Notes: generated by a model not told the origin, from the letters alone. Counted from the stretch's first letter, positions 39,749 to 60,491 are shown. The stretch: DNA of 64,000 nucleotides from Candidatus Nanopelagicales bacterium (GCA_041393815.1 JAWKJK010000003.1:153562-217561); one strand, 5' to 3'. Made by a program: numbers and translations.

Positions 39749-40774
39749 GTGCCCGACATCGAGCCGACGCCCGACGCGGTCGCCGACCACCCGGCCGCGG
39801 ACGCCGACCACCCGGCCGCGGACGTCGACCACCCGGCCGCGGACGCCGACCCGGGGGGCACCGACCACACCGACGTCCCCCCGGGTCCGACCGGGGCGGA
39901 GCACCGGCGCGGGCCGTTCCGCGAGGGCGACCTGGTCCAACTCACCGACCCCAAGGGCCGGATGCACACGGTGGCGCTGGTCCCCGGCCGGCAGTTCCAC
40001 ACCCACAAGGGGGCACTGCCCCACGACGAGTTGATCGGTCGCCCCGAGGGCATCGTGGTCACCTCGACCGGAGGCACGCCGTACCTCGCGCTGCGGCCGC
40101 TGCTCACCGACTTCGTGCTGTCGATGAAGCGCGGCGCCACGATCGTCTACCCCAAGGACGCCGCACGGATCGTGGGCCTGGCCGACGTGTTCCCCGGGGC
40201 CCGCGTCGTCGAGGCCGGCGTGGGGTCGGGTGCCCTGACCTGCTCGCTGCTGCGCGCGGTCGGCGACCAGGGCCTGGTGTCGTCGTACGATCGCAGGGAC
40301 GACTTCGCCGCGATCGCGCGCACGAACGTGGAGCGCTACTTCGGCGGCCCGCACCCGGCCTGGCGGCTCACGGTGGGGGACCTGCAGGACTCGCTGTCCG
40401 AGGCCGAGGTCGACCGGGTCGTGCTGGACATGCTGGCGCCGTGGGAGTGCCTCGACGCGGTCGCGTCCGCGCTCGTCCCGGGCGGCGTCCTGGTCGTGTA
40501 CGTCGCCACCACGACCCAGCTGTCCCGCATGGCGGAGACCCTGCGCGAGGACGGCCGGTGGACCGAGCCGAAGGCGGAGGAGTCGCTGCTGCGGACCTGG
40601 CACCTCGAGGGCCTGGCCGTGCGCCCGGACCACCGGATGGTCGGCCACACGGGGTTCCTGCTGGTGACTCGCCGACTCGCCGAGGGCACCGTGCTGCCGC
40701 CGCGTCGCACCCGCCCGGCCAAGGGTGCGTACGGCGAGGACTACGAAGGACCCGGCTCCGGGGATCGGGGCTGA
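39749..40774 (+). CDS. trmI: tRNA (adenine-N1)-methyltransferase with an N-terminal repeat extension
   Basis: [26 protein letters not shown]...[33 protein letters not shown]. No start codon lies closer to the conserved core than GTG 39749. Confidence 0.85.
39785..39847 (+). repeat. 21-bp tandem repeat x3 inside the trmI 5' region
   Basis: GACCACCCGGCCGCGGACG(C/T)C x3, encoding [14 protein letters not shown]. Confidence 0.9.
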
Positions 40775-40883
40775 ACCACCCGCCGCGGCCAACGCGACCC
40801 GCCGGAGGATCCGACGCATGGAGGGGTGGCGTACGCGCCCGACGTGGGTAGGGTCGAAGGAAGCGCCAAGGGAGGTGACCGAC

Positions 40884-42542
40884 GTGCCGTACGAGGACGA
40901 CGCCCCGCGCCTGCGCGCGATCGAGGACCGGCTGGCCGAGGTCCAGGACGAGCTGGCCGCCGCCAAGTCGCAGAACGTCCGGCTCGCGGCGACGCTGCGC
41001 GAGGCGCGCGAGCAGATCATCACCCTCAAGGCCGAGGTCGACCGGCTGGCCGAGCCGCCGAGCGGGTACGGCGTCTACCTCGAGACCCACGACGACGACA
41101 CCGTCGACGTCTACACGGCCGGGCGCAAGATGCGCGTCACGGTGAGCCCCGGGGTCGACGCCAGCGAGCTGCGGCCGGGCCAGGAAGTCATGCTCAACGA
41201 GGCGCTCAACGTCGTGGGTGCGATGGAGTACGAGCGGCACGGGCAGATCGTGATGTTCAAGGAGCTGCTCGAGGACGGCTCGCGCGCCCTGGTGCTCGGC
41301 CACACCGACGAGGAGCGGGTGGTGCCGCTGGCGCAGCCGCTGCGCGGCACCGTGCTGCGTGCCGGCGACTCCCTGCTGATGGAGCCGCGGTCGGGCTACG
41401 TGCTGGAGAAGATCCCGAAGGCCGAGGTCGAGGAGCTCGTGCTGGAGGAGGTCCCTGACATCGACTACGCCGACATCGGCGGCCTGGCCGGCCAGATCGA
41501 GCAGATCCGCGACGCCGTCGAGCTGCCGTTCCTGCACCCCGACCTGTTCGCCGAGCACAAGCTCGCCCCGCCCAAGGGGATCCTGCTGTACGGCCCGCCC
41601 GGCTGCGGCAAGACGCTCATCGCCAAGGCGGTCGCCAACTCGCTGGCCAAGAAGGTCGCCGAGCGCGAGGGTCGCGAGGCCGGACGGTCGTACTTCCTCA
41701 ACATCAAGGGTCCCGAGCTGCTGAACAAGTACGTGGGCGAGACCGAGCGGCACATCCGGCTGGTATTCCAGCGGGCCCGGGAGAAGGCGTCCGAGGGCAT
41801 GCCGGTCATCGTCTTCTTCGACGAGATGGACTCGCTGTTCCGCACCCGCGGCTCGGGCGTCTCCAGCGACGTGGAGAACACGATCGTGCCGCAGCTGCTC
41901 AGCGAGATCGACGGCGTGGAGAGCCTGGAGAACGTCATCGTCATCGGGGCGTCCAACCGCGAGGACATGATCGACCCGGCGATCCTGCGTCCGGGCCGGC
42001 TCGACGTGAAGATCAAGATCGAGCGGCCGGATGCGGAGGCCGCGCGCGACATCTTCTCGAAGTACCTCACCGCCGACCTGCCGCTGCACGCGGACGACCT
42101 GGCTGAGCACGATGGGTCGCCGGACACCGCGTGCGCGGCGATGATCCAGCGCGCCGTGGAGCGGATGTACAGCGAGATCGAGGAGAACCGGTTCCTGGAG
42201 GTCACCTACGCCGACGGGGACAAGGAGGTCCTGTACTTCAAGGACTTCAACTCCGGCGCGATGATCGAGAACATCGTCGCGCGGGCGAAGAAGATGGCCA
42301 TCAAGGACCTCTTGGACCACGGCCAGCGCGGCATCCGGGTGCAGCACCTGCTGACGGCGTGCGTGGACGAGTTCCGCGAGAACGAGGACCTGCCCAACAC
42401 GACCAACCCGGACGACTGGGCGCGGATCTCGGGCAAGAAGGGCGAGCGGATCGTGTTCATCCGCACCCTTGTCCAGGGCAAGCAGGGCACCGAGGCCGGC
42501 CGCTCCATCGACACGGTGGCCAACACCGGCCAGTACCTGTAG
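40884..42542 (+). CDS. arc: proteasome-associated AAA ATPase ARC/Mpa
   Basis: N-terminal coiled coil, OB domains, GPPGCGKT Walker A, and a C-terminal ...TGQYL tail. GTG 40884 is preceded by GGGAGG. Confidence 0.95.
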
Positions 42543-42692: not shown

Positions 42693-44171
42693 CTACGGCC
42701 TGGCGGGGAGCTGGACGGTCGCGTGCGTCCCGGTCTCCCCGTCCGAGTCCAGGGTGACGGTCCCGCCGTTGGCCTCGACCAGCGCGCGCACCACGGACAG
42801 GCCAAGCCCGGAGCCGGGCACCTCGTCCGCGCGCGGTCCGCGCCAGAAGCGATCGAACACGTGCGGCAGGTCCTCGGGCAGGATGCCGGGTCCGGTGTCG
42901 GCCACGACGACGCGGGCCACGTCCGCAGCGGTGCCTCCGAGCTCCACGCGCACTGAGACCTCGTCGCCCGGGCGGCAGAACCGCGCGGCGTTGGACAGCA
43001 GGTTGCCCACCACCTGGTGCAGCTGGTCGCCGTCGGCGACGACGTGGATGCCGTCCTGCACCTGGGTATGAACCGTCAGACCCGCCGCGGCCAGGGCCGG
43101 TTCGTGCGCGGCCACGGCCGAGCGCACCAGGGCGGCGAGGTCCACGTCGGTGCGCGGACCGCGTGGGGTGGGGTCCTCCGCGGCGGCGAGCCGGGCCAGG
43201 TCGTCGACCACCCGCCCGAGTCTGAGCGCCTGGTCGTGCAGGCCGGCGAGGACCTGCGGGTCCGGCGGGACGTAGCCGTCGCGCAGCTCCTCCAGGCCGG
43301 CTTGGAGCACCGCCAGCGGGGTACGCACCTCGTGCGCGACGTCCGCGGCCATCTGCCGCCGCTGCGACTCTGCCAGTGCGACGGCGTCGGCGGCGTCGTT
43401 GAAGGCGGCAGCAACCTCCGCCACCTCGTCGGGACCGGCCTCCTGCGCCCGCGCCGTGCGGTCGCCGGCACCGAACGCGCGGGCGGTCCCCGCGAGCTCG
43501 CCGAGCGGCCGGGTGAGCCGCCGCGTCACCCACCAGCTCGCGAGAATGGCGACGCCGAGGGCGACCACGGCCGCCACCGCGATCCAGGTCCACGCCACCG
43601 ACCGGCCAGACCCGGCAGCCGGCGTGCCGAACCCCAGTCGTACGGTGCCCACCTGCTGGCCCTCGACGACCACGGGCGCGACGACCGCGCCGGACCCCGC
43701 GGACACGACCGCCCCTCCGCCCGGGCCCGGTCCGGAGCCCTGGCCGCTCGCCGGGTTGCCGCCGTCGGGGTTGCCGCCACCCGCCTGGCCGTGACCGTCC
43801 GTCCCCGTCCCGACGATGACGCCGTCCGCGTCCCGTACCGACAGCCCCGCGCCCGCCGCGGACGCGACCGCGGTCGCGTCGCTGAGGTCGGCACCCTCCC
43901 AGCCACCTGCGCGCGTGTACGCCTGCGCGGCCAGGTCGGCGACGGTCACCGCCACCGCCTCCCGCTCCTCCGTGCGCAGGGCGGACAGCCCGAGGCCGGA
44001 GCCGATCAGGGCGGAGACTGTGAGCACCGCGACGGCGACCAGCGAGACCACGGTGAAGGCGAGCAGCAGCCGACCGCCGAGCGACCCCCGCGCCCCGGAG
44101 CGCCGCGACCGCCGTCCCCCGGGGCGCGCCTCAGCGGTCACGGGGGAGCCCCAGCCGGTAGCCGACGCCAA
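42693..44171 (-). CDS. sensor histidine kinase (2 TM, HAMP, HisKA, HATPase_c)
   Basis: MAADVAHEVRTPL H-box, LLSNAARF N-box, DTGPGI and GSGLGLS motifs. GTG 44141 is an alternative start. Confidence 0.85.
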   Translation of the reverse strand: MASATGWGSPVTAEARPGGRRSRRSGARGSLGGRLLLAFTVVSLVAVAVLTVSALIGSGLGLSALRTEEREAVAVTVADLAAQAYTRAGGWEGADLSDATAVASAAGAGLSVRDADGVIVGTGTDGHGQAGGGNPDGGNPASGQGSGPGPGGGAVVSAGSGAVVAPVVVEGQQVGTVRLGFGTPAAGSGRSVAWTWIAVAAVVALGVAILASWWVTRRLTRPLGELAGTARAFGAGDRTARAQEAGPDEVAEVAAAFNDAADAVALAESQRRQMAADVAHEVRTPLAVLQAGLEELRDGYVPPDPQVLAGLHDQALRLGRVVDDLARLAAAEDPTPRGPRTDVDLAALVRSAVAAHEPALAAAGLTVHTQVQDGIHVVADGDQLHQVVGNLLSNAARFCRPGDEVSVRVELGGTAADVARVVVADTGPGILPEDLPHVFDRFWRGPRADEVPGSGLGLSVVRALVEANGGTVTLDSDGETGTHATVQLPARP

Positions 44172-44814
44172 CGACGGTCTCCACGACGGAGCCGCCGTCG
44201 GGGCCGAGCTTGCGGCGCAGGTTCTTCACGTGCGAGTCGATCGTGCGCTCGTAGCCGGCGAACTCGTAGCCGCGGACCCGGTTGACGAGTTCGTAGCGGG
44301 AGTAGACCCGGCCGGGGCTCGCGGCCAACGCCGTCAGCAGCCCCCACTCGGTCGGTGTGAGGTCCAGCTCGGTCCCGTCGAGGACGGCGACGTGGCGGTC
44401 GTCGTCGATGAGGAGCCGGCCCCCGCCGTACGACGGTGCCGCCGGACCGTCCGCCGTCTCCTCGCCGCGGCCGAGCACGGCCTGGACCCGCAGCACCACC
44501 TCGCGCGGGGAGAACGGCTTCGTCACGTAGTCGTCCGCGCCGAGCTCGAGGCCGGCGATGCGGTCCTCGACTCCTGACCGTGCAGTCAGCACGATGACCC
44601 GGGTTCCCAGACGGCGGGCCTCGCGCAGCACCTCCAGCCCGTCCACGTCCGGCAGCCCGAGGTCCAGCAGCATCAGGTCCACGCCGGTGCCCAGCGAGGC
44701 GATCGCCTCGGCGCCGGACCCGGTGGTGAGCACCGAGTGGCCCGCGCGCTCGAGGTAGCGACGCAGCAGGTCGCGGATGTCCCGCTCGTCCTCGACGACC
44801 ACGACCGCTGCCAC
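44131..44814 (-). CDS. OmpR-family response regulator
   Basis: [14 protein letters not shown]...[13 protein letters not shown]...DDYVTKPF...TVVGVGYRL. Confidence 0.9.
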
Positions 44815-44862
44815 GGGCCCATCCTGACGCGTCCCAGCCCGCGTGGCGGGCTGGGGAGGCAC

Positions 44863-44884
44863 CTCCACACGATCTCCACACGGA
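44863..44884. promoter_or_regulatory. candidate response-regulator operator: 11-bp direct repeat in the divergent RR / DUF2202 promoter region
   Basis: CTCCACACGAT followed by CTCCACACGGA, one helical-turn spacing. Confidence 0.3.
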
Positions 44885-44994
44885 CCGCACGACCCCTGCA
44901 GACCGGCCTCCGATGCTGCAGGTGTTCGCCCCCCAGACGGCGACGAAGACCCGGGCCGGAGCCCCGCGCGCTGGCCCCCGACGAAGGAGAGACC

Positions 44995-45705
44995 ATGCGA
45001 CGCACCCTCATCGTCGCCGGTGCAGCCGCCGGCGTCCTCACCCTCGGCGTGGCCGCCCCCGCGTTCGCCGCGGGCAACGGCTTCGGCCCCGGCACCGGCA
45101 CCGCGTCGGCGACCTGCGACGGCACCGGCGTTCCGCTGGCGGACGGCACCGGCACCGGCGGAGGCCCGTACGGACCGGCCGGGTCCGGCCGAGGCGCCGG
45201 TCGTGGCCAGGGCGGGCAGGGGTTCGGACAGGGCCCCGGGAACGGCACCGGCGCGAACGCCGCCGCCATGGGCACCCTGACCGCGACGCAGAAGGCCGAC
45301 CTGCAGTTCATGGTCGAGGAGGAGAAGATGGCGGGCGACCTGTACGCCGCCTTCGCCGCGAAGTACGACAGCGCCGAGTTCGCCCGGATCGCCGCCAGCG
45401 AGGACCGGCACATGGCGTCGGTGCAGAACCTGCTCGACAAGTACGGCATCGCCGACCCGACGGACGGCGCGAAGGCAGGCGTGTTCGACAACGCCGACCT
45501 GCAGGCGCTGTACAACAAGCTGCTGGCCCAGGGCATGACGAGCCTGGACGACGCGTACGACGCCGGCGTGCTGGTCGAGAAGACCGACATCGCGGACCTC
45601 GAGAAGGACCTCGTGGGCCTGACCGCCCCCGACGTGAAGCGGGTCTACACCAACCTGCTGCGCGGCTCCACCAGCCACCTGGCCTCCTTCGAGGCCCTGG
45701 CCTGA
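44995..45705 (+). CDS. secreted DUF2202 (ferritin-like) domain protein with a Gly-rich N-terminal region
   Basis: Signal [25 protein letters not shown], then [16 protein letters not shown]...[20 protein letters not shown]. Confidence 0.8.
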
Positions 45706-45866: not shown

Positions 45867-47387
45867 ATGAGCGTGCACCGGGTCATGGGGATCGAGACCG
45901 AGTACGGGATCTCGGTGCCCGGCCACCCGAACGTCAACGCCATGCTGACCTCGTCCCAGGTCGTCAACGCGTACGCGTCGGTGGCGATGGGGGAGCGGCG
46001 CGGCAAGACCCGCTGGGACTACGACGAGGAGACCCCGCTGCGCGACGCGCGCGGGTTCGACCTGTCCCGTGCCGAGGCCGACCCGACCCAGCTCACCGAC
46101 GAGGACCTCGGCCTGGCCAACCTCATCCTCACCAACGGGGCCCGGCTGTACGTCGACCACGCGCACCCGGAGTACTCCACGCCGGAGGTCACCAACCCGC
46201 GTGACGCGGTGGTGTGGGACAAGGCCGGCGAGCGGATCATGGAGCGCGCGGCCGCCCTCGCGTCCGCGGTCCCCGGGGCGCAGCCGATCCAGCTGTACAA
46301 GAACAACACCGACAACAAGGGCGCGTCGTACGGCTGCCACGAGAACTACCTGATGGCGCGCACCACCCCGTTCGCCGACGTGGTCCGGCACCTCACCCCG
46401 TTCTTCGTGTCCCGCCAGGTGGTCACCGGGTCCGGCCGGGTCGGCCTGGGCCAGGAGGGGCGCGAGCACGGCTTCCAGATCTCCCAGCGGGCGGACTTCT
46501 TCGAGGTCGAGGTGGGCCTGGAGACGACGCTGAAGCGCCCCATCATCAACACCCGGGACGAACCGCACGCCGACCCGGAGCGCTACCGGCGGCTGCACGT
46601 CATCGTGGGCGACGCGAACCTGTCGGAGACCTCCACCTACCTCAAGCTGGGCACGACCTCGCTGGTGCTGTCGATGCTCGAGGACGGGTTCTTGGACTTC
46701 GACCTGTCGCCGGCGAAGCCGGTGCAGGAGATGCACGCGGTGTCGCACGACCCCACGCTCGGCCACCAGATCGAGCTGCGCGACGGCCGTCGCCTCACCG
46801 CGGTGCAGATGCAGCTGGAGTACCTCGAGACCGCGCGCAAGTACGTGGCGGACCGGTACGGCGACGACGTCGACGAGCAGACCGCCGACGTGCTCGCCCG
46901 CTGGGAGTCGGTGCTGCTGCGGCTCGAGGACGACCCGATGCTGCTGGCCGCGGAGCTGGACTGGGTGGCCAAGCTCAGCCTGCTCGACGGATACCGCCGC
47001 CGGGACGGGCTGGACTGGGACGCGGCCCGGCTGCACCTGGTCGACCTGCAGTACTCCGACGTGCGCCGCGGCCGGGGGCTGGCCGCCCGGCTGGAGGAAC
47101 GGGGCTCGCTGCGCCGGCTGACGACGGACGAGGAGGTCGCGCGGGCGGTCGTCGAGGCGCCGCACGACACCCGCGCGTACTTCCGCGGGGAGTGCCTGCG
47201 CCGCTACGGCGACTCGGTCGCGGCCGCCTCCTGGGACTCGGTGATCTTCGACATCCCCGAGCGCGACGCGCTGCAGCGGGTTCCGACGCTGGAGCCGCTG
47301 CGGGGCACCAAGGCACATGTCGGGGCGCTGCTCGACGCCAGTCCCGACGTGGCCGCGCTGATGGCCAACCTCACCGACCGCGGCTGA
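45867..47387 (+). CDS. dop: Pup deamidase/depupylase
   Basis: [13 protein letters not shown]...[21 protein letters not shown]...[19 protein letters not shown]. Confidence 0.95.
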
Positions 47388-47434: not shown

Positions 47435-47740
47435 GTGCTGGGACGGCTGCGACGCTCGCTGGGCGGCTCGGCGCCCGGGATGAGCGCCGCGCTGGGCGCC
47501 CTGGACGAGGTGCTCAACCCCGCGGCGCACCGGGCCCGCGAACTGCTCGAGCACGACCACGAGCGGGTCGTGGCCACACCGTCCCCGGGCGACCGCCTGC
47601 TCAACGAGGGGGTGCTGGAACTGCCGGCGACCCCTCAGCCCAGCCGCTCCAACCGGAGCGCGAGCGCGGGGCAGGCGGCGACCGCCCGCTCGGCGAACCC
47701 GTGCAGGTGCTCGGGGACCGGACCGCCCACGAACGGGTAG
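47435..47740 (+). CDS. small hypothetical protein (DUF6191-like by eye); its 3' end overlaps the convergent ferredoxin gene
   Basis: GAGGAGGG SD 4 nt before the GTG: LGRLRRSLGGSAPGMSAALGALDEVLNPAAHRARELLEHDHERVVATPSPGD. The true stop is uncertain. Confidence 0.3.
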   Translation: MLGRLRRSLGGSAPGMSAALGALDEVLNPAAHRARELLEHDHERVVATPSPGDRLLNEGVLELPATPQPSRSNRSASAGQAATARSANPCRCSGTGPPTNG

Positions 47741-47865
47741 CCCCAGTCGTCGAGGGAGATGACCTCGGGCAGCAACTCGGCGCACAGCCCATGGGCGTCG
47801 CAGCGCAGCCAGTCGACCTGCAGCGACTCCATCCGACGGCCGGAGGTCACGGTCGATCCGTCCAT
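47635..47865 (-). CDS. small ferredoxin
   Basis: LQVDWLRCDAHGLCAELLPEVISLDDWGYPF...AVAACPALAL. GGAGGTG SD. Starts 5 nt after the stop of the NuoF-like gene. Confidence 0.7.
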   Translation of the reverse strand: MDGSTVTSGRRMESLQVDWLRCDAHGLCAELLPEVISLDDWGYPFVGGPVPEHLHGFAERAVAACPALALRLERLG

Positions 47866-47870
47866 CCCGG

Positions 47871-49313
47871 TCACCTCCACTCCGTGTCGCTGCCGAGGGC
47901 GGGGCCGGGCACGGGGATGACCGGTCGTCCCACGGAGCCCGGGCAGGGCTCCCCGGCCGCGTGCGCGTAGGCGTCGTCCGCGGCCATCGTCAGGGCCGAG
48001 CGAACCGTGCGGGCCACGCCACCGGGGTGGTGGCAGGCGCCCCGGCCCTCGACCATCCCGCACCAGCGGTGCAGCCGGTCCAGCGTCGCCAGACCGCCTT
48101 GCCCGCTCGCGAGCAGCTGCAGGCCGTGCGCGAGTGCGGGCAGGCCGTTCAGGCAGGGTCCGCACTGCTGCGCACTCTCGCCCGCCATCCACCGGGTGAT
48201 CCGGGCCGTCTCGGCCAGGGTGCAGGTCCCCACCGGGACCGGGGCCAGCAGCCCGACTCCCGGGGACACGCCAGACTCGCCGCGCCCGGGGGCCTGCAGC
48301 GGCGTGGTCCACGCGTCGGCGCCGTCCAGCCAGGTCCCCGCGAATCCGCCCATGAGGACCGCACCGACCTGGGTGCGGTCGATGCCGGCGGCCTCCAGCG
48401 CGTCGCCCGCGGGCAGCCCCGACGGCACCTCGAGGACGGACGAGCCGCCGGACGGGTGCCGGACGGTCACCATCCGGGTCCCGGGGTCGCCGGGCACGCC
48501 GACCTGACGGAACCACTCCGCCCCGTGCCGGGCGATCAGCCCGACGTGGGCGTACGTCTCCGCGTTCGACAGCAGCGTGGGGCGTCCGTCGACCCCGCGC
48601 TGATCGGGCCGCGGGGTGGGCCCGGTCGGCAGCGCCGGACCGCCGGACAGGAAGCGGATGACCGCGCTGGCCTCGCCCGACACGTAGCGGTCCGGGACCT
48701 CCTCGAGGCGGACCCGCAGGTCGTGGCCGTCGTCACGCTCGAGCTCGTACAGGGCGGCGTCGACGGCGTCCCGAGTGGCCAGATCGCCGCGGTGGACGAC
48801 CACGACGACGTCGCGGGCGCCCACGGCCCGGGCGCAGGCGACGGCCCCGTCGAGCACCAGGTGGGGGGTGAGCGTGAGCAGGGAGGCGTCCTTCGCGGAC
48901 AGCGGCTCGCCCTCGGAGGCGTTGACGACGACCACCGGGCGACGACGCCGCGAGGCGACCGCGGCCAGCTTGATGCCGAACGGGAACGCCGCACCGCCGC
49001 GACCCCGCAGCCCCGAGTCGGTCACCTGCTGCAGCAGCGGGTCGGGCTCGGACCTGCCGCGCCGGCGGGGGACCGGGAGGGCGCCGTGCACCGCACGGTG
49101 CTCCTCCAGGCCGAGGCGCCGGCGCGAGTGGTCGACCCCGGCCAGCAGCCGAGCCGGTCCGAGCGCCAGGACCTGGGTGCTCCCCGGGCGCTCGTTCGGG
49201 ACCGGCGTCACCGGCGTCACGGGCTCTGCGGTGCCGGTCGGCCCGGGCAGATCCACCAGGGTCATCGTCCGGGCCTCGGCCGCGCGTGCGCCGGAACCGG
49301 GACTGGCGGTCAC
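47871..49313 (-). CDS. NuoF-like flavin/Fe-S oxidoreductase (NADH dehydrogenase subunit F family)
   Basis: GLRGRGGAAFPFGIKL, VVVNASEGEPLSAKD, YVSGEASAVIRFL, ESAQQCGPCLNG and RGACHHPGG. GTG 49313 overlaps the upstream stop (GTGA); ATG 49265 is the alternative. Confidence 0.8.
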   Translation of the reverse strand: MTASPGSGARAAEARTMTLVDLPGPTGTAEPVTPVTPVPNERPGSTQVLALGPARLLAGVDHSRRRLGLEEHRAVHGALPVPRRRGRSEPDPLLQQVTDSGLRGRGGAAFPFGIKLAAVASRRRRPVVVVNASEGEPLSAKDASLLTLTPHLVLDGAVACARAVGARDVVVVVHRGDLATRDAVDAALYELERDDGHDLRVRLEEVPDRYVSGEASAVIRFLSGGPALPTGPTPRPDQRGVDGRPTLLSNAETYAHVGLIARHGAEWFRQVGVPGDPGTRMVTVRHPSGGSSVLEVPSGLPAGDALEAAGIDRTQVGAVLMGGFAGTWLDGADAWTTPLQAPGRGESGVSPGVGLLAPVPVGTCTLAETARITRWMAGESAQQCGPCLNGLPALAHGLQLLASGQGGLATLDRLHRWCGMVEGRGACHHPGGVARTVRSALTMAADDAYAHAAGEPCPGSVGRPVIPVPGPALGSDTEWR

Positions 49314-50062
49314 GGGGTCACCGCCACCGTCGCGGTGGACTCCGGGGGCGGCGTTCCCGCCTTCTCGGCCCACCCGGGTGCCAGCGGCCCCCCGACGGCC
49401 CACAGGGTGACCAGCACGGGCGCGACGGCCAGGCCGATCAGGGCGGTGATCCGCGCCGGCTGGGGCAACGTCACCAGGCCGGCGACGCGAGCCGCCACGG
49501 CCATGATCACCAGGACGACGCAGACGGCGGTGACGATCTGCACGGCCGGGTTGCGGGCGTCGGTCCCGGTGCCGAGCCCGTGCAGCACCGAGGCGCCCCA
49601 GGCGACGTAGGTGAACGCGTGCACGACCCGCCAGGTGCGTTCGCTGAGGCGGCGACGCCACGCGGTCGCGATGAGGGCCGCGATGAGCAGGTCGACCGCG
49701 AGGGTGCCGAGGCCGAGCCAGATCGGCCGGTACGGCGAGGCGAACGGGACCACCGCGTCCCAGACGTCGATGTCGACGTAGGAGTCCAGCACCGAGGTCA
49801 CGATGTGGATGCCGAGCAGGGCCACGGTCATCAGGGCCAGCTTGCGGTGCAGCTCGTTGGTGACGAACGCGGGCATCTTGAACGGCAGCCGGCGCGCCGT
49901 GGACAGCACGCCGAGGATGACGACCAGGGTGAACTGGACCAGCAGCACCAGCCCGGTCGCCCGGTTGAGCCACCACAGGGTCTGCGAGGGGACGGTGACG
50001 TCCACGGCGGCGACAGGGGCCGCCGCCGACAGGTGCTCCAGCGTCAGGCTGAGCGCGGTCAT
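49310..50062 (-). CDS. ferric-reductase-like transmembrane (di-heme b type) protein
   Basis: Six predicted TM helices with paired His residues: NELHRKLALMTVALLGIHIV and VVHAFTYVAWGASVLHGLG. Confidence 0.8.
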   Translation of the reverse strand: MTALSLTLEHLSAAAPVAAVDVTVPSQTLWWLNRATGLVLLVQFTLVVILGVLSTARRLPFKMPAFVTNELHRKLALMTVALLGIHIVTSVLDSYVDIDVWDAVVPFASPYRPIWLGLGTLAVDLLIAALIATAWRRRLSERTWRVVHAFTYVAWGASVLHGLGTGTDARNPAVQIVTAVCVVLVIMAVAARVAGLVTLPQPARITALIGLAVAPVLVTLWAVGGPLAPGWAEKAGTPPPESTATVAVTP

Positions 50063-51048
50063 GCCGCGACCTCCTCGGGCCAGGGGTGAACGGGGACGAC
50101 GGTGCCCTCGGTCGTGACCAGTCGGGCGGGCAGGCCGGCGTTGGCCAGCCAGGTGGGTGCCGACTCGCCCAGCATCAGGGCGGCGGCGGAGGCTGCGTTG
50201 GCGTCCACGCAGGTGGCGGCGGCCACGGAGGCCGTACGGAAGCGCCCTCGTGCGGGTGAGGCGGTGCGCGGGTCGATGAGGTGGTGCACGATGCGCCGGC
50301 CGACCCGCCAGCGTCGGGCCAGGGTGGTCGAGGTCGCCAGCCCGCCGGTGGCGAGCGCGACCAGGACCGGCGGGGCCTCGCCCGGCTCGGGCTCGGGCCG
50401 CTCGGTGAGGCGGACCAGGAACCCCGGGCTGCCTTCGGGGACGCCGGCCACGGCCAGGTCACCGCCCATGCCCACGAGCACCGGACCGTCGACGGCGCGG
50501 GCGGCAGCCTGCGCGGCGGCATCGGCGGCCCAGGCCTTCGCCGACGCCCCGAGGTCGAGCACGACCCCGGCCGGCACCCGCACCGTCCCGGCCTCGTCGT
50601 CGACGACGACCTGCGTGTGGTCGGGGCGTCGGACGACGGCGACCGGCGTGGTGAGGCGCCGGATCCCGGTGCTGCGCAGCTCCTCGATGTCGCGGTCGTA
50701 GCCGTGTGCGACCAGCAGCTCGCCGATGGTGGGGTCGATCAGGCCGTCGGTGATGCGCGCCACCCGCAGCCCCTCGCGCACCAGCGTGCGGAACAGCGGG
50801 GAGGCCGGGACCGGCCGGCCCTCGGCGGTGTTGAGCTCGCTGATCTCGCTGTCGGTCCGGAACCGGCTGGCCGCGAGGTCCACGGCGTCGATGACGGCCT
50901 GCACGGCGGCCCGTGCCGGGGCCAACTCGTCGGCGCGCGTCGTCACCACCTCGACGGTGGTCGACCACACGGTCCAAGTGGCGTGGGCGGCGGGCAGGCA
51001 GTCGGTGTCCCGGACGGCGCCGCCCGCTGCGGGGGCGGCCGTGGTCAT
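50059..51048 (-). CDS. apbE: FAD:protein FMN transferase (ApbE family), no signal peptide visible
   Basis: SRFRTDSEISELN, DPTIGELL, LDLGASAKAWAAD, MGGDLAV and HHLIDPRT. ATGA overlaps at both ends. Confidence 0.85.
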   Translation of the reverse strand: MTTAAPAAGGAVRDTDCLPAAHATWTVWSTTVEVVTTRADELAPARAAVQAVIDAVDLAASRFRTDSEISELNTAEGRPVPASPLFRTLVREGLRVARITDGLIDPTIGELLVAHGYDRDIEELRSTGIRRLTTPVAVVRRPDHTQVVVDDEAGTVRVPAGVVLDLGASAKAWAADAAAQAAARAVDGPVLVGMGGDLAVAGVPEGSPGFLVRLTERPEPEPGEAPPVLVALATGGLATSTTLARRWRVGRRIVHHLIDPRTASPARGRFRTASVAAATCVDANAASAAALMLGESAPTWLANAGLPARLVTTEGTVVPVHPWPEEVAA

Positions 51049-51701
51049 GACCCGGAACCGCCGGCGGGGGCGGGCGCGGGGGCGGGCTTCGCCGGGGCCG
51101 GGGCCGGCGGGGGCGGCGGCGGCGGGGCCGGGGCGGCCGGCTTCGGGGCCGGTGCCGGGGCGGCGGGCTTCGGGGCGGGTGCGGGGGCGGCCGGCTTGGG
51201 TGCCGGCGCGGCGGCGGGCTTGGGCGCGGACTGCCCGGAGGACCCGCCCGAGCCCGAGGACCCGGAGGAGCCGGAGGAGCCGGACGACCCGCCGGAGCTC
51301 GAGGACCCGGACGAGCCGGAGGACCCGGAGGAGCCGGACGTCGTCACGGCCTGGGGAGCGGCGGCCGGCGCGGCCGGCGCGGCGTCGGCCTTGGCCTTCG
51401 CCGCCGCGGCCTTCTTCGCCTTCGCGGCCGCCTTCGCCTTGGCCTTCGCCTTGGCGGCCTTCGCCGCTGCGGCGTCCGTCGCCGCGGCCGGGTCGGAGGA
51501 CCCTGCCGCGCCGTCGTCGACGGCGGCCGCCTCGGCCACCGCCACCTCGGCCAGGGGGGCCTGCTCGGCGGCAAGCCCCGTGGTCGGTGCGGCCAGGGCC
51601 GCGGTCACGATGCCGGTCGCGGCGACGGTTCCCACCGTCGCCGCCGCGGCCATCACGTTGACCGTGCGGGTTCCTGCCGTCCTGCGGCGGGTCGCGTCCA
51701 T
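51045..51701 (-). CDS. low-complexity secreted protein (Ala/Lys, Gly/Ser and Pro/Ala/Lys repeat blocks)
   Basis: MDATRRRTAGTRTVNVMAAAATVGTVAATGIVTAALA signal with an RRR. High G/C third position in this frame. GAGGTAGG SD. Stop overlaps the apbE ATG. Confidence 0.5.
   Translation of the reverse strand: MDATRRRTAGTRTVNVMAAAATVGTVAATGIVTAALAAPTTGLAAEQAPLAEVAVAEAAAVDDGAAGSSDPAAATDAAAAKAAKAKAKAKAAAKAKKAAAAKAKADAAPAAPAAAPQAVTTSGSSGSSGSSGSSSSGGSSGSSGSSGSSGSGGSSGQSAPKPAAAPAPKPAAPAPAPKPAAPAPAPKPAAPAPPPPPPPAPAPAKPAPAPAPAGGSGS
51130..51229. repeat. 27-bp tandem repeat, about 3.7 units
   Basis: GGGGCGGCCGGCTTCGGGGCCGGTGCC-like units, encoding APAPKPAAP on the minus strand. Confidence 0.85.
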
Positions 51702-51957
51702 CGCCTACCTCTCGGGTCGGGCCCGTTCCTGCGGGGGCCTCACGGTCGGGTCGGCGCTGCGCCGGACCCGGGTCGATCCCCTCGCGGACCACTGTGGGGG
51801 AGGCACCGATAAGTGGGTACCCCGCCACTCCTAACGGGTCCCTAAGGATCTTGGGTCGCCTCAGGGAGCCGCGTCCCGGCCCGGCGGATAGGGTCAGGGG
51901 TTGCGGCGGGTCCGCTGCCGGGTGGTCGGTGCCGGGGCCCGCACGGGAGGAGGGTCC

Positions 51958-52167
51958 ATGAGCACGCGCGACAGCGGCGAGCAGAAGCGGGCGACCCGCT
52001 CGGCGGACGAGGTCGACGAGGTCGAGGTCGCCCCCGCGGAGGACGTGGCGGCCCGCAAGGAGCAGCTCGACGCCGACGTGGACGCGATGCTGGACGAGAT
52101 CGACGAGGTGCTCGAGGAGAACGCCGAGGACTTCGTGAAGTCGTTCGTGCAGAAGGGCGGCCAGTGA
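51958..52167 (+). CDS. pup: prokaryotic ubiquitin-like protein
   Basis: [15 protein letters not shown]...[28 protein letters not shown] ends in GGQ. GGGAGGAGGG SD. Confidence 0.95.
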
Positions 52168-56378: not shown

Positions 56379-57353
56379 ATGGCGGCGGGCCGCCCGGTGT
56401 CCCGCGCGCAGATCCGGGCCGTGGTCGCGGGCTACGCCGACAGCCCCAGTGGCGACGCCTTCGAGCGGATGTTCGAGCGCGACAAGGACGAGCTGCGCGG
56501 GATGGGGATCCCGGTGGAGACCGTCGTCAACGCCGGGGGCGAGGTCGAGGGCTACCGGATCCGGCGGGAGGACTACGCGCTGCCGCCGGTGCGGTTCAGC
56601 GCGGAGGAGCTCGCCGTGCTCGGCCTGGCGGCCCGGGCCTGGGAGCAGGCCAGCCTGGGCCCCGCCGCGGCCGCCGCCCTGCGCAAGCTCGAGGCGTCCG
56701 GGGGCGGCGTGGCCGCGCCGGACGGGCTGGGCGTCACGACCCGGGTGGCGCCGGCCGATGCGGCGTTCCTGCCGCTCAGCGCCGCCGTGCGCCACCGGCG
56801 CGAGGTCCGTTTCGACTACCGCCGTCCGGGCCAGGAGGAGGTCCTGACCCGCCGGGTCCACCCCTGGGGCCTGGTCTCGCGGCGGGGCCGCTGGTACCTC
56901 GTCGGGTTCGACCTCGACCGCGACGCCGAGCGCGTCTTCCGGCTGTCCCGCATCGTGGGGACGCCGCGCCCCGTCGGCGACCCGGGGGCCTTCGACCTCC
57001 CCGCCGGCGTGGACCCGCGTGACCTCGTCGGCCGCGGGGGCGACCCTGACCGCGGGCCCGTGCGGGCCGTCGTGCGGCTGCGACCCGGGGCGGCCCACCG
57101 GCTCCGCCGCTGGGGCGCGCCGGGAGGAACCCGGCCGGCCGGCACCGAGGACGCCGTGGGCGAACCCGCCGCGGGGGCGCCCGCAGCCGGCGACCTGGTC
57201 GTGCTCGCCGGTGCCGACGAGGAGTCGCTGGCGGCCGAGATCGCGGCCGTGGGCGACGCGGCCGTGGTCGTGTCCCCGGCCGAGGTCCGCGCGGCGGTGC
57301 TGCGCCGCCTGCGACACGTGCGCGACGCCCACGCACCGGGAGCGCACTCGTGA
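56379..57353 (+). CDS. pafB: HTH/WYL-domain transcriptional regulator PafB; coordinates use the first canonical start, but the true N-terminus is probably near 56331
   Basis: FERMFERDKDELRGMGIPVE and a WYL region. The in-frame upstream sequence TTTRRTERLLNLLFCL completes the HTH but contains no ATG/GTG/TTG. Confidence 0.85.
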   Translation: MAAGRPVSRAQIRAVVAGYADSPSGDAFERMFERDKDELRGMGIPVETVVNAGGEVEGYRIRREDYALPPVRFSAEELAVLGLAARAWEQASLGPAAAAALRKLEASGGGVAAPDGLGVTTRVAPADAAFLPLSAAVRHRREVRFDYRRPGQEEVLTRRVHPWGLVSRRGRWYLVGFDLDRDAERVFRLSRIVGTPRPVGDPGAFDLPAGVDPRDLVGRGGDPDRGPVRAVVRLRPGAAHRLRRWGAPGGTRPAGTEDAVGEPAAGAPAAGDLVVLAGADEESLAAEIAAVGDAAVVVSPAEVRAAVLRRLRHVRDAHAPGAHS

Positions 57354-58351
57354 CCGGCCGAGACACCCGAGGCGGACCGCCGACGGTCCCGGCCGCAGCG
57401 GAGCAGCTGTCCCGGCTGCTGGCGCTGGTGCCGTGGCTCAGCGCCCACGACGGGGTGACGGTCGCGGAGGCGGCCGAGCACTTCGGCGTGACTCCCGACC
57501 AGCTCGAGCGGGACCTGTGGCTGCTCGTCGTCACCGGGCTGCCCGGCCACCTGCCGGACCAGCTGGTGGACATCCAGTTCTGGGACGACGGGGGACGGAT
57601 CCACGTCCTGGATCCGCAGACCCTGGGCCGGCCGCTGCGGCTGTCGCCGGACGAGGCCATGGCGCTGCTGGTCGGGCTGCGGCTGCTGGCGCAGGTGCCT
57701 GGCGACCACGACCGGGCCGCGCTCGCGTCCGCCACGGCCACGCTGGAGCGCGCGGCGGGGGACGCCGCCCACGGCAGTGCCCGGGTGCAGGTGAGCGTCG
57801 AGAGCCCGGACGTGGCGTCCGGGCCGGTGGAGCAGGCCGTGCGGGAGCGCCGCGCGCTGCGGCTGCGCTACCTCGGCGGGGCGCGCGACGAGGTCACCGA
57901 GCGGGTCGTGGACCCGCTGCGGATCCTGGTGGTGGGGGACCGGCCGTACCTGGTGGGGTGGTGCCGTCGGGCCGGGGCGGTGCGTACCTTCCGCCTCGAC
58001 CGGGTGCTCCACGCCGAGGTGCTGGCCGAGCCGGCAGCGCCCCCGCCGGACGCCGCAGTGCGATCCGTCGAGCCCGGGGGCCTGCGCCCCGAGGACGCGA
58101 CGGTCGTGACCGTCGAGCTGCGGCCGGAGGCGCGCTGGGCGGCGGACCAGCCGGCCGCCCTGTCGGCCGAGGAGACCCCGGACGGGAGTCTGCGGGTCCG
58201 GTTCGCGGTCGGCGACCCGGCCTGGATCGTGGGCCAGGCGCTGCGCTGGGGCGGCGCCGGGCGGGTCGTCGCGCCCCCCGAGGTCGTCACGGCGGTCCGG
58301 GACGCAGCCGAGGCCGCGCTCGCCGGGTACGGGGATCCTCCGGACGGCTGA
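57350..58351 (+). CDS. pafC: HTH/WYL-domain transcriptional regulator PafC
   Basis: LSRLLALVPWLSAHDGVTVAEAAEHFGVTPDQLERDLWLL. ATGA-type overlap with pafB. Confidence 0.9.
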   Translation: MTGRDTRGGPPTVPAAAEQLSRLLALVPWLSAHDGVTVAEAAEHFGVTPDQLERDLWLLVVTGLPGHLPDQLVDIQFWDDGGRIHVLDPQTLGRPLRLSPDEAMALLVGLRLLAQVPGDHDRAALASATATLERAAGDAAHGSARVQVSVESPDVASGPVEQAVRERRALRLRYLGGARDEVTERVVDPLRILVVGDRPYLVGWCRRAGAVRTFRLDRVLHAEVLAEPAAPPPDAAVRSVEPGGLRPEDATVVTVELRPEARWAADQPAALSAEETPDGSLRVRFAVGDPAWIVGQALRWGGAGRVVAPPEVVTAVRDAAEAALAGYGDPPDG

Positions 58352-59561: not shown

Positions 59562-60491
59562 GTGACCGCCACCGAGGAGACCGCCAAGGGCGGCCGCCGT
59601 CGCTCCCCGCGCGACGACCAGGGCTCGATGACCCTGGTCGAGCACCTGCGCGAGCTGCGGACGCGGCTGGTCAAGGCCGGCCTGGCCATCCTCGTCGGCA
59701 TGGTCGTCGGGTGGATCTACTACCCGCAAATCTTCAGCTTCCTCAGCCAGCCGTTCGAAGCGGTGATCGAGCAGGCCCGCGCCGAGGGCCGCGACGTCAC
59801 CCTGGCCCTCACCGGTGTCGCCGACCCGTTCGTCCTGCAGATCCAGATCTCCGCCTTCGCCGGGCTCGTCCTGGCCGCGCCCGTGTGGCTGTACCAGCTG
59901 TGGCGCTACGTCACCCCGGGTCTGCACCGCAACGAGAAGAAGTGGGCGTACGTCTTCGCCGCGGTCGCGACGCCGCTGTTCGCCGCCGGCGTCGTGATGG
60001 CGTACGTGGTGCTGCCCTACGGCCTGCAGATCCTCTTCGGCTTCACGCCCGACGGTGTCGAGAACATCGTCTCGGTCGACAAGTACCTGTCGTTCTTCAT
60101 CCGCACCGTGCTGATCTTCGGCGTCGGCTTCCTGCTGCCGCTGCTGGTCGTGATGCTGAACTTCGCCGGCGTGCTGTCGGGCCGCAAGCTGATCTCGTGG
60201 TGGCGCGGGATCATCGTGGGCGTCTTCATCTTCGCCGCCATCGCGACCCCGACCGGGGACCCGGTCAACCTGATGCTGCTGGCCGGTCCGATCCTGCTGC
60301 TGGTCGCAGCGGCTGTCGGCATCTCGCTGCTCAACGACCGGCGACGGGCCAAGCGCCGCGGCGCCGAGCCGTCGTACGAGACGTGGGAGGACGACGAGGC
60401 GTCGCCGATGCCGGTGGTCGACCTCGACCCGGCCGACGACCTGCCCTCGGCCCTCGACGACGATCCCGAGCCGGGGCCGGACGCCCGCTGA
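59562..60491 (+). CDS. tatC: twin-arginine translocase subunit TatC
   Basis: MTLVEHLRELRTRLVKAGLAILVG and six TM helices. Confidence 0.9.
   Translation: MTATEETAKGGRRRSPRDDQGSMTLVEHLRELRTRLVKAGLAILVGMVVGWIYYPQIFSFLSQPFEAVIEQARAEGRDVTLALTGVADPFVLQIQISAFAGLVLAAPVWLYQLWRYVTPGLHRNEKKWAYVFAAVATPLFAAGVVMAYVVLPYGLQILFGFTPDGVENIVSVDKYLSFFIRTVLIFGVGFLLPLLVVMLNFAGVLSGRKLISWWRGIIVGVFIFAAIATPTGDPVNLMLLAGPILLLVAAAVGISLLNDRRRAKRRGAEPSYETWEDDEASPMPVVDLDPADDLPSALDDDPEPGPDAR

Follow-up and report, generated by a model that had tools for sequence, protein, structure and literature searches.

A candidate flavinylation tag on an unannotated low-complexity protein encoded in an ApbE-containing redox operon of a Candidatus Nanopelagicales genome

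Which protein receives the flavin when an apbE gene lies in a redox operon that encodes no recognizable flavin-binding acceptor? This question is raised by a 64,000-nt stretch of DNA (GCA_041393815.1, JAWKJK010000003.1:153562-217561; hereafter the window, GC content 70–84%) from a metagenome-assembled genome (MAG) annotated as Candidatus Nanopelagicales bacterium. Between dop and pup, two genes of the Pup-proteasome locus, five minus-strand genes encode, in order of transcription, a low-complexity protein (LC), an ApbE, a ferric-reductase-like membrane protein (FR), a NuoF-like protein, and a small ferredoxin (Fdx). An earlier note on this DNA had likened these parts to a chain that takes electrons from NAD(P)H in the cytoplasm and carries them across the membrane, and had pointed out that the ApbE has no visible acceptor, the usual place of such a protein being taken by a "pure low-complexity" one. 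The analysis described below suggests that the missing acceptor is probably LC itself.

Profile searches for FMN_bind (PF04205) returned no match in the five proteins, in their extended open reading frames (ORFs), or in the long alternative-frame ORFs of the region, and none in 39 LC homologues or 20 FR homologues, some of the latter extended at the C-terminus. The strict motif [ST]GA[ST] was likewise absent from all five window proteins; both absences agree with what had been reported earlier. No conserved flavinylation motif was found in the NuoF-like protein, FR, ApbE, or Fdx. Near ApbE, a substrate-type motif, [ST]G[GA]S, is present at the level of the LC family, and the window copy of LC ends in GGSGS and carries SGGS internally.

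The LC gene (51701..51045, minus strand; 218 aa), recognized as an ORF overlapping the following gene, matches no family in Pfam or NCBIfam. Its product consists of an Arg-rich N-terminus with a hydrophobic helix, an Ala/Lys helix, a Ser/Gly-rich and Pro/Ala-rich linker, and a tail that ends ...PAGGSGS before the stop codon. Residues 1–38 (51588..51701, minus strand; MDATRRRTAGTRTVNVMAAAATVGTVAATGIVTAALAA) are nearly identical in the related locus L004 and include a predicted helix at 3–37; this segment is a predicted signal peptide or membrane anchor, oriented N-in by its charge, in which A-L-A is a possible cleavage site. A single-sequence AF2 model of the window protein gave a pTM of 0.28, with pLDDT < 50 for residues 113–159. 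The model contained the N-terminal helix (3–37) and the Ala/Lys helix and nothing folded past residue 110, suggesting that LC is intrinsically disordered and has no globular fold.

In most related loci, a small ORF immediately upstream of ApbE encodes a protein of this kind (~100–250 aa); where ApbE is not adjacent, the ORF adjoins FR or Fdx. The N-terminus is Arg-rich, often with the sequence RDAALRRLxRxNRW, and is followed by one moderately hydrophobic stretch (h-region), with a mean net charge of +4.4 before the stretch and +0.8 after it. The linker has a median length of 91 residues (range 49–192); 74% of its residues are Ala, Ser, Pro, Thr, or Gly, and it diverges freely, with a mean column identity of 19%. 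The C-terminus ends in [ST]-G-[GA]-S followed by the stop codon. The label "pure low-complexity" does not fit these data, given that the N-terminal 38 residues and the last residues of LC are conserved in relatives; the acceptor slot is filled not by a meaningless sequence but by a conserved family with a flavinylation-like C-terminus.

To place the tail against its background, we used 8592 six-frame ORFs of at least 60 aa from the related loci. An [ST]G[GA]S ending was present in 65, and 48 of these lie directly upstream of ApbE, ~14 lie beside FR or Fdx at loci without an adjacent ApbE, and 3 are unrelated. Streptomyces-type tails read D-S-T-S-G-A-S or D-A-T-S-G-A-S, and most others V-V-S-G-G-S. 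Among JGI metagenome loci, an independent set fetched after the tail hypothesis was formed, the exact tail was found in 5 of 7 informative loci, the remaining two ending in TTSGS and SGSGDS. Odd LC-like tails (...SHGGG, ...SHGGN, or ...HPSGG) were seen in L023:8030-8440, L076:7961-8446, and L029:7687-8415.

The constraint appears to act on the protein and not on the DNA, because synonymous codons vary at all four motif positions (Gly GGA/GGC/GGG/GGT, Ser TCG/TCC/TCA/AGC), 45 distinct 18-nt LC tails occur, the spacing between the LC stop and the ApbE start varies (−19 to +35 nt), and in L017 and L049 some 25 further residues follow the motif (ATSGGS-GVTVTT...), making it internal. The same variation in spacing and the internal motifs argue against a different origin of the tail, as a by-product of translational coupling in which G-rich codons serve as the ribosome-binding site of ApbE. 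Gly-Gly codons (GGNGGN) do look Shine-Dalgarno-like, and many junctions are ATGA or GTGA overlaps. However, the flanking Ser/Thr residues, with their TCN and AGC codons, are conserved as much as the glycines, SGAS tails are not GGAGG-like, and at loci that lack ApbE the identical tail precedes FR or follows Fdx. A ribosome-binding-site origin was rejected on this codon and spacing evidence; it is largely refuted, and we regard it as extremely improbable.

The motif known for ApbE substrates is D-x-x-[S/T]-G-A-[S/T], with FMN attached to the last residue (PMC12052999). Seven residues are sufficient, and tags at protein termini are flavinylated efficiently (PMC12052999; PMC9400968). The Streptomyces LC tails match the published motif exactly. 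A precedent exists in FMN_red proteins, which carry ApbE-flavinylated motifs on unstructured C-terminal extensions (PMC11334425), and some ApbE substrates remain unidentified, as implied by "orphan" apbE genes (Méheust et al. 2021, PMC8238504). Because a conserved motif is missing from the other module proteins and the LC tail matches the ApbE motif, we propose LC as the acceptor and infer that its tail is the flavinylation site.

In the window, the last five LC codons (G-G-S-G-S; 51048..51062, minus strand) precede the TGA that overlaps the ApbE ATG. The nearest relatives end in K-T-S-G-S (L004) and T-S-T-G-S (L006), slightly more distant ones in A-S-G-G-S (L008) and P-T-S-G-G-S (L089), and a shortened tail like that of the window is also seen elsewhere, in L105 (TTSGS) and L049. 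A regular-expression search of the translated window protein located SGGS at residues 136–139 (51285..51296, minus strand), within a Ser/Gly repeat, and at residues 151–154 (51240..51251, minus strand). The first of these is a possible alternative site of flavinylation; across the LC family, internal sites are rare (mean 0.33 per protein).

Several points weigh against LC as a flavinylated electron carrier. The GGSGS, KTSGS, and TSTGS tails of the window and its nearest relatives fall short of the family consensus by one residue and have no Ala at −1, and the canonical-like sites of the window protein are internal SGGS within a repeat. The acceptor residue would be Ser, and in most tails Gly takes the place of the canonical Ala. 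To our knowledge, no electron carrier has a precedent in which FMN is merely tethered, with no pocket to bind it. Thr is the residue that published ApbEs prefer, and yields fall when the motif is altered by substitution (PMC12052999); the published 12-residue tag has three residues beyond the Thr (PMC9400968); direct proof of flavinylation at the very C-terminal residue was not found in the literature searched.

In a rival reading, the acceptor would be truly absent, being encoded elsewhere or lost, and LC would be a generic low-complexity secreted or wall-associated protein without a redox role. The non-canonical tail in the window, the free divergence of the linker, the blank FMN_bind searches of proteins and alternative-frame ORFs, and the loci without an adjacent ApbE are all compatible with this reading. 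It is harder to reconcile with the LC-type ORFs, combining the N-terminal architecture with the [ST]G[GA]S tail, in ~62 of 79 loci and in the independent set, even where ApbE is not adjacent, when the background rate of such tails is only 3 in ~8500 ORFs. We therefore consider a truly absent acceptor unlikely.

The ApbE gene (51048..50059, minus strand; 329 aa) encodes a predicted member of the FAD:protein FMN transferase family, matching PF02424 with 150 bits against a cut-off of 25.6 (E = 1e-43 (1.2e-43)) and the PDB entries 1vrm (E = 5e-20), 3pnd, 4xgw, and 6nxi. The protein begins MTTAAPAAGGAVRDTD..., and the conserved domain starts from about residue 25. As had been noted for the window protein, no signal peptide or lipobox was found, by eye and by hydropathy, on this ApbE or on ~50 homologues, whose N-termini are short and hydrophilic. 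The conserved active-site residues of the family are Ser241, His257, and Asp285 in V. cholerae numbering (PMC12052999). Two of the three are present in the window ApbE, which keeps Ser240 and His256 and has Asn284 at the position of Asp285, with Asp282 two residues earlier. This substitution characterizes the subfamily: Asn replaces Asp285 in 62 of 64 sequences, an acidic Asp/Glu occurs two positions earlier, and the signature reads TS...HH[ILV][ILV]DP...WRTVSVAA..C[DE]AN.A[ST]TA. The chemistry of these enzymes may differ as a result, a further point against flavinylation of LC as proposed.

The 120 best ApbE homologues are all 300–330 aa in length and stand alone, none being fused. In L016:8156-11233 (OY970155.1, an uncultured Acidimicrobiaceae MAG), a 1025-aa in-frame ORF joins ApbE, a five-helix FR, and a NuoF-like protein; it comes from one nanopore-derived MAG only, and in the related L035 the three genes are separate and overlap. 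Apparent ApbE-FR fusions in L006, L052, and L025 were dropped as evidence of topology: their ApbE is split over two frames, and they are likely frameshift or assembly artefacts.

The FR gene (50062..49310, minus strand; Ferric_reduct PF01794, E = 3e-8) encodes 250 aa with six transmembrane (TM) helices. In an alignment of 20 homologues, His72/His86 and His148/His160 are invariant, with the spacings H-x13-H and H-x11-H in the second and fourth helices, and are predicted to provide two bis-His sites for b-haems. FR occurs in variants of five and six helices. The window FR, a six-helix protein, carries the outer-face motif GPLAPGWAEKAGTP, and the six-helix variants share GPLxxGWAxRAGTP. The positive-inside rule and the alignment of its helices with helices 2–6 of NOX/MsrQ suggest that the N-terminus lies outside. 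The protein ends 27 residues past TM6 and has no fused FAD/NAD(P)H dehydrogenase domain. About 20 FR homologues (L014, L027, L031, L037, L039, L041–L043, L050, L056, L061, L063, L065, L067, L079, L083, L084, L087, and L088) carry a beta-rich extracytoplasmic C-terminal domain of ~110 residues after GWAxRAGTP, which the window FR lacks. This extension could be a docking domain for a tethered flavin; as a hidden FMN_bind it was rejected, having no Pfam match and only a weak TOBE-like one (E = 0.02).

The NuoF-like gene, on the minus strand, runs from 49313 (GTG) or 49265 (ATG) to 47871 and encodes 480 or 464 aa, the 464-aa form from the ATG being that of the NCBI annotation. The protein contains Complex1_51K (PF01512, E = 2e-31) and NADH_4Fe-4S (PF10589, E = 5e-14) domains and keeps the GRGGAxFP and NAxEGEP motifs for FMN/NADH along with three of the four N3-cluster cysteines. 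Its subfamily has the signature QCGPCxNGL ... GRGACHHP, in which the first Cys of the NuoF CxxCxxC is replaced (by Ala in the window). The score on TIGR01959 is 172 bits against a NuoF equivalog cut-off of 559, and no nuo genes are present among the neighbours. The ferredoxin gene, also on the minus strand, runs from 47874 (GTG) or 47865 (ATG) to 47635 (79 or 76 aa; Fer4_15 PF13459, E = 7e-12; NCBI record MEZ5116700.1, "ferredoxin"). Its small, single-cluster product has the CxxHxxC...CP pattern, which is usual in actinobacterial single-cluster ferredoxins. Together, the NuoF-like motifs, the ferredoxin pattern, and the four FR histidines support the earlier comparison of these parts with a transmembrane electron chain that starts at cytoplasmic NAD(P)H.

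Gene map and domain searches confirmed the five minus-strand genes between dop and pup, with successive 4-nt overlaps of ATGA, ATGA, GTGA, and GTGA, and GC3 is of coding type (0.93–0.97) in all five. We propose that they form one operon of the "MsrQ-like / NuoF-like" flavinylation-associated type. NADH would reduce the FMN and the Fe-S cluster of the NuoF-like protein, from which electrons would pass to the small ferredoxin, cross the membrane via the two b-haems of FR, and arrive at a flavin on the outer side. This path is the most economical one and follows the scheme put forward by Méheust et al. (2021) for such systems. LC would be a secreted or membrane-anchored, disordered flavin acceptor in place of the classical FMN_bind domain. 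The co-encoded ApbE would move FMN from FAD onto the extreme C-terminus of LC ([ST]-G-[GA]-S-COOH in the family), and the flavin, on a flexible tether of 50–190 residues, would carry electrons away from the outer haem to acceptors within the cell wall or outside it, for example ferric iron, quinones, or oxygen. The direction of electron flow and the compartments are those we infer from the sequences. Taken as a whole, an NADH-driven outward electron-transfer module with a tail-flavinylated LC acceptor is an explanation that we judge somewhat probable.

As a type, the module is already known. Méheust et al. (2021, eLife; PMC8238504) described "MsrQ-like" flavinylation clusters bioinformatically, mostly in Actinobacteria and 31 of them with a NuoF-like protein, and proposed electron transfer from NAD(P)H to the outside. 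Those clusters share the PF01794 di-haem protein, apbE, and the PF10589 NuoF-like cytosolic donor with the module studied here. An FMN_bind (PF04205) protein is described as typical of them, whereas the present module has none, and a domain-less protein with a C-terminal motif is mentioned neither in the 2021 paper (PMC8238504) nor in the 2024 follow-up (PMC11334425). In the literature searched, we found no account of the tail-tagged domain-less acceptor, the signal-less ApbE subfamily with Asn for Asp, or the dop-pup synteny.

Comparison with other systems places the proposed acceptor and its partners more closely. In the engineered Flavin-tag (Tong et al. 2021/2022) and the FMN_red extensions (PMC11334425), ApbE needs no more than a short peptide resembling D-x-x-[ST]-G-A-[ST] at an unstructured terminus; in contrast to these motifs, most LC tails have Gly for Ala and end at the proposed acceptor Ser. 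In FMN_red (Huang et al. 2024, PMC11334425), the tethered flavin docks in the protein's own flavin-binding domain, whereas LC has no folded domain. FR has the same four His in two helices as NOX/Fre/MsrQ, with spacings of 13 and 11, its 5-TM core aligns with NOX TM2–TM6, and a cytoplasmic NAD(P)H-oxidizing partner is likewise part of the system. In NOX/Fre, however, an FAD/NADPH dehydrogenase domain is fused, while here the donor would be the NuoF-like protein and ferredoxin; the N-terminus of FR is predicted to lie outside, and the proposed outer partner is a tethered flavin instead of O2, Fe3+, or MsrP. The NuoF-like protein aligns with NuoF/Nqo1 of Complex I over ~380 residues, comprising the FMN/NADH loop and the C-terminal Fe-S domain (Nqo1 and HydB aligned), but differs in its score far under the equivalog cut-off, the replaced first Cys of CxxCxxC, and the absence of NuoE and nuo genes nearby.

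Listeria-type flavin-based extracellular electron transfer (Ndh2, EetA/B, FmnA/B, PplA) resembles the module in having an ApbE-family enzyme and, as proposed here, a flavinylated surface protein that terminates a chain fed by NADH. Unlike that system, the cluster contains no homologues of Ndh2, EetA/B, DmkA/B, or the ECF flavin transporter, the candidate acceptor has no FMN_bind domains, and the ApbE has no lipoprotein signal. Export signals are also missing from the cytoplasmic ApbE of Klebsiella pneumoniae and the ApbE domains of trypanosomatid fumarate reductase (PMC12052999). The targets of those enzymes are cytoplasmic FMN_bind reductases, whereas the only candidate target here is predicted to be exported.

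This difference in compartment is itself a point against the proposed scheme. ApbE has no export signal at any locus, yet the charge pattern of LC puts its tail outside. Its linker composition argues for the same placement: Pro/Ser/Thr-rich linkers are typical of extracytoplasmic regions. ApbE could instead modify LC in the cytoplasm, after which LC would be exported by Tat or by post-translational Sec, or else its tail would stay inside, where LC would give the NuoF-like protein a tethered FMN and a membrane anchor. Cytoplasmic flavinylation would accord with the absence of a signal peptide or lipobox from ~50 ApbEs of the subfamily and would make FAD export needless, and cytosolic ApbEs are known (PMC12052999). 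It is also favoured by the Arg-rich N-regions of LC, with RR near the h-region in 36 of 50 family proteins, by the weak hydrophobicity of that region, by the basic residue after it in 34 of 50, and by the tolerance of Tat for hydrophilic unstructured cargo of ~100–120 residues (PMC6708511). However, the mature LC of the window (~180 aa) exceeds this length, and no Tat-signal family matched LC at E ≤ 0.01, its twin-arginine context in the window being TRRRTAG. The composition of the linkers and the NuoF-like protein's own FMN-binding loop also speak against this arrangement, as does the L016 fusion. We regard cytoplasmic flavinylation as possible, if on balance doubtful.

The L016 fusion bears on the scheme with an outer, tail-flavinylated LC as well. 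Its in-frame order of ApbE, FR (5 TM), and NuoF would put ApbE outside, opposite NuoF, and this ORF points to an alternative in which ApbE might get outside by some other route. A bolder variant of the cytoplasmic route, which we hold to be rather unlikely, is that LC proteins are natural "flavin-tag" proteins, a class of ApbE substrate devoid of any flavin-binding domain: the signal-less Asn-type ApbE would load the C-terminal Ser in the cytoplasm, where it has access to FAD, LC would be exported unfolded, and the flavin would swing on a leash of 50–190 residues between the outer haem of FR and acceptors within or outside the actinobacterial cell wall.

How widely does the module occur, and what does its position between dop and pup mean? 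A pattern scan with one genome per species detected the NuoF-like subfamily in at least 557 genomes. Among the best 80 loci from species genomes, which were used for locus comparison, the gene order ApbE, FR, NuoF-like, Fdx is found in ~70, from several classes and phyla. Carriers include Solirubrobacterales, Acidimicrobiia, Streptomyces, Streptacidiphilus, Streptosporangiaceae, Phytohabitans, Jatrophihabitans, Gaiellaceae, Chloroflexi, and Dormibacteraeota, and the core of the module is also present in the JGI metagenome loci. Neither dop nor pup lies within 10 kb in these 80 loci, with the sole exception of the Nanopelagicales MAG GCA_038208295.1 (L004, the same place as L009). The five-gene module is not itself part of the Pup-proteasome locus and occurs without those genes in ~79 other genomes.

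Within the window, the module is flanked by dop (45867..47387, plus strand; TIGR03688, 762 bits, above cut-off) and pup (51958..52167, plus strand; PF05639, E = 4e-26; ending ...FVQKGGQ), both outside it and separated by a gap of 4570 nt. The same placement was found in L004, L006, and L008; in L089, the module adjoins pup and the contig ends before dop. Relatives at this position have identities of 51–64% for the NuoF-like protein, 55–62% for ApbE, and 73–78% for Dop. In L090 (ApbE identity 53%), the module is located elsewhere in the genome, and a metagenome scan for further dop/pup-linked relatives yielded none above 48% identity. Because four other divergent relatives share the position, it is not a one-strain insertion but an old event, the vertically inherited synteny of one Nanopelagicales-like clade. 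The earlier note had seen a peculiar insertion here, a view that does not survive the finding that genomes of at least 79 other species carry the same core at unrelated loci. It had also allowed that the cluster might prove common at unrelated loci and be present here in this strain only: the first part is the case, and the second is not.

A functional tie to the Pup-proteasome, through redox control of pupylation or shared regulation of divergent LC and pup promoters, might be suspected from the recurrence of the position in such divergent relatives. LC and pup do share a divergent intergenic region of 256 nt (51702..51957), in which both promoters have to sit. Aligned with L004, L006, and L008, this region contained no conserved block, and no sign of a functional link between module and pupylation was found in that alignment, in Rfam searches, or in the literature searched, where nothing ties ApbE to dop or pup. 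Neither dop nor pup lies within 7–10 kb of the module in L090 or in the ~79 other genome loci, and the same position throughout one clade is what plain vertical inheritance would predict. We consider a tie to pupylation very unlikely. The predicted uncoupling of pup from dop transcription follows from the gene geometry.

The remainder of the Pup-proteasome locus is complete as searched: arc, dop, pup, prcB, prcA, pafA, and pafBC were all found above family cut-offs, with arc/mpa at 40725..42542 and prcB, prcA, and pafA (TIGR03686) after pup. Downstream of pafA lie pafB (56379-57353), pafC (57350-58351), and tatC (59562-60491), as in other actinobacterial Pup loci; in L089, tatA/tatC likewise adjoin pafBC. 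The locus is broken a second time between arc/mpa and dop (42693-45705), where an OmpR-type two-component system (histidine kinase 42693-44171 and response regulator 44131-44823, both minus strand) is accompanied by a secreted DUF2202 ferritin-like protein (~44990-45705, plus strand). In L004, arc directly adjoins dop. In 29 of 58 other loci, an OmpR-type two-component system immediately precedes the module.

Several smaller features were noted around the operon. The 247-nt gap between dop and ferredoxin contains a small coding-like ORF (47435-47740, plus strand) that runs into the 3' end of the ferredoxin gene. Outside the overlap, GC at its three codon positions is 0.86/0.52/0.92; Pfam and NCBIfam searches returned no matches, a gene is called at the same place in the Logan contig L001, and L004 lacks the gap. 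Exactly at the ferredoxin stop codon is an imperfect 13-nt inverted repeat (47606-47636; 77% complementary, 5-nt loop), which may form a terminator hairpin without a T-tract. A consensus scan for promoters and terminators found none, the expected outcome at 75% GC. An Rfam search around the operon found no riboswitch or other RNA, only a sub-threshold chance match to a CRISPR direct repeat at 45391-45427.

LC genes have largely escaped annotation. An exact look-up in a collection of 15 billion proteins did not find the LC protein of the window or those of L004 and L006, and a profile search of the protein collection retrieved only 7 members of the family, called "hypothetical protein" or mis-named RodZ. 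The gene was left uncalled in L089 (7510-8000) and L090 (7578-8000), leaving gaps of ~420–490 nt; the gap in L089 includes a masked run of N. These genes, missed by gene callers and domain databases, constitute an annotation blind spot that would explain seemingly acceptor-less ApbE clusters in many soil Actinomycetota.

The "fixed" adjacency of dop and pup is broken in one clade, although this aspect carries the lesser weight. Several extracytosolic respiratory and iron-reducing systems depend on flavinylation by ApbE, and a cytoplasmic-looking ApbE with an exported-looking substrate presents a concrete puzzle of where and how cofactors are loaded. Culturable carriers of the module, among them Streptomyces xylophagus NRRL B-12029, Streptacidiphilus fuscans, and Phytohabitans suffuscus NBRC 105367, make the acceptor idea testable. 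Flavinylation of the LC family, if it occurs, would make these proteins the first natural substrate to consist of no more than a tag on a disordered chain, and LC proteins acting as natural "flavin-tags" would, if that proposal is true, represent a protein-tethered version of the diffusible flavin shuttle.

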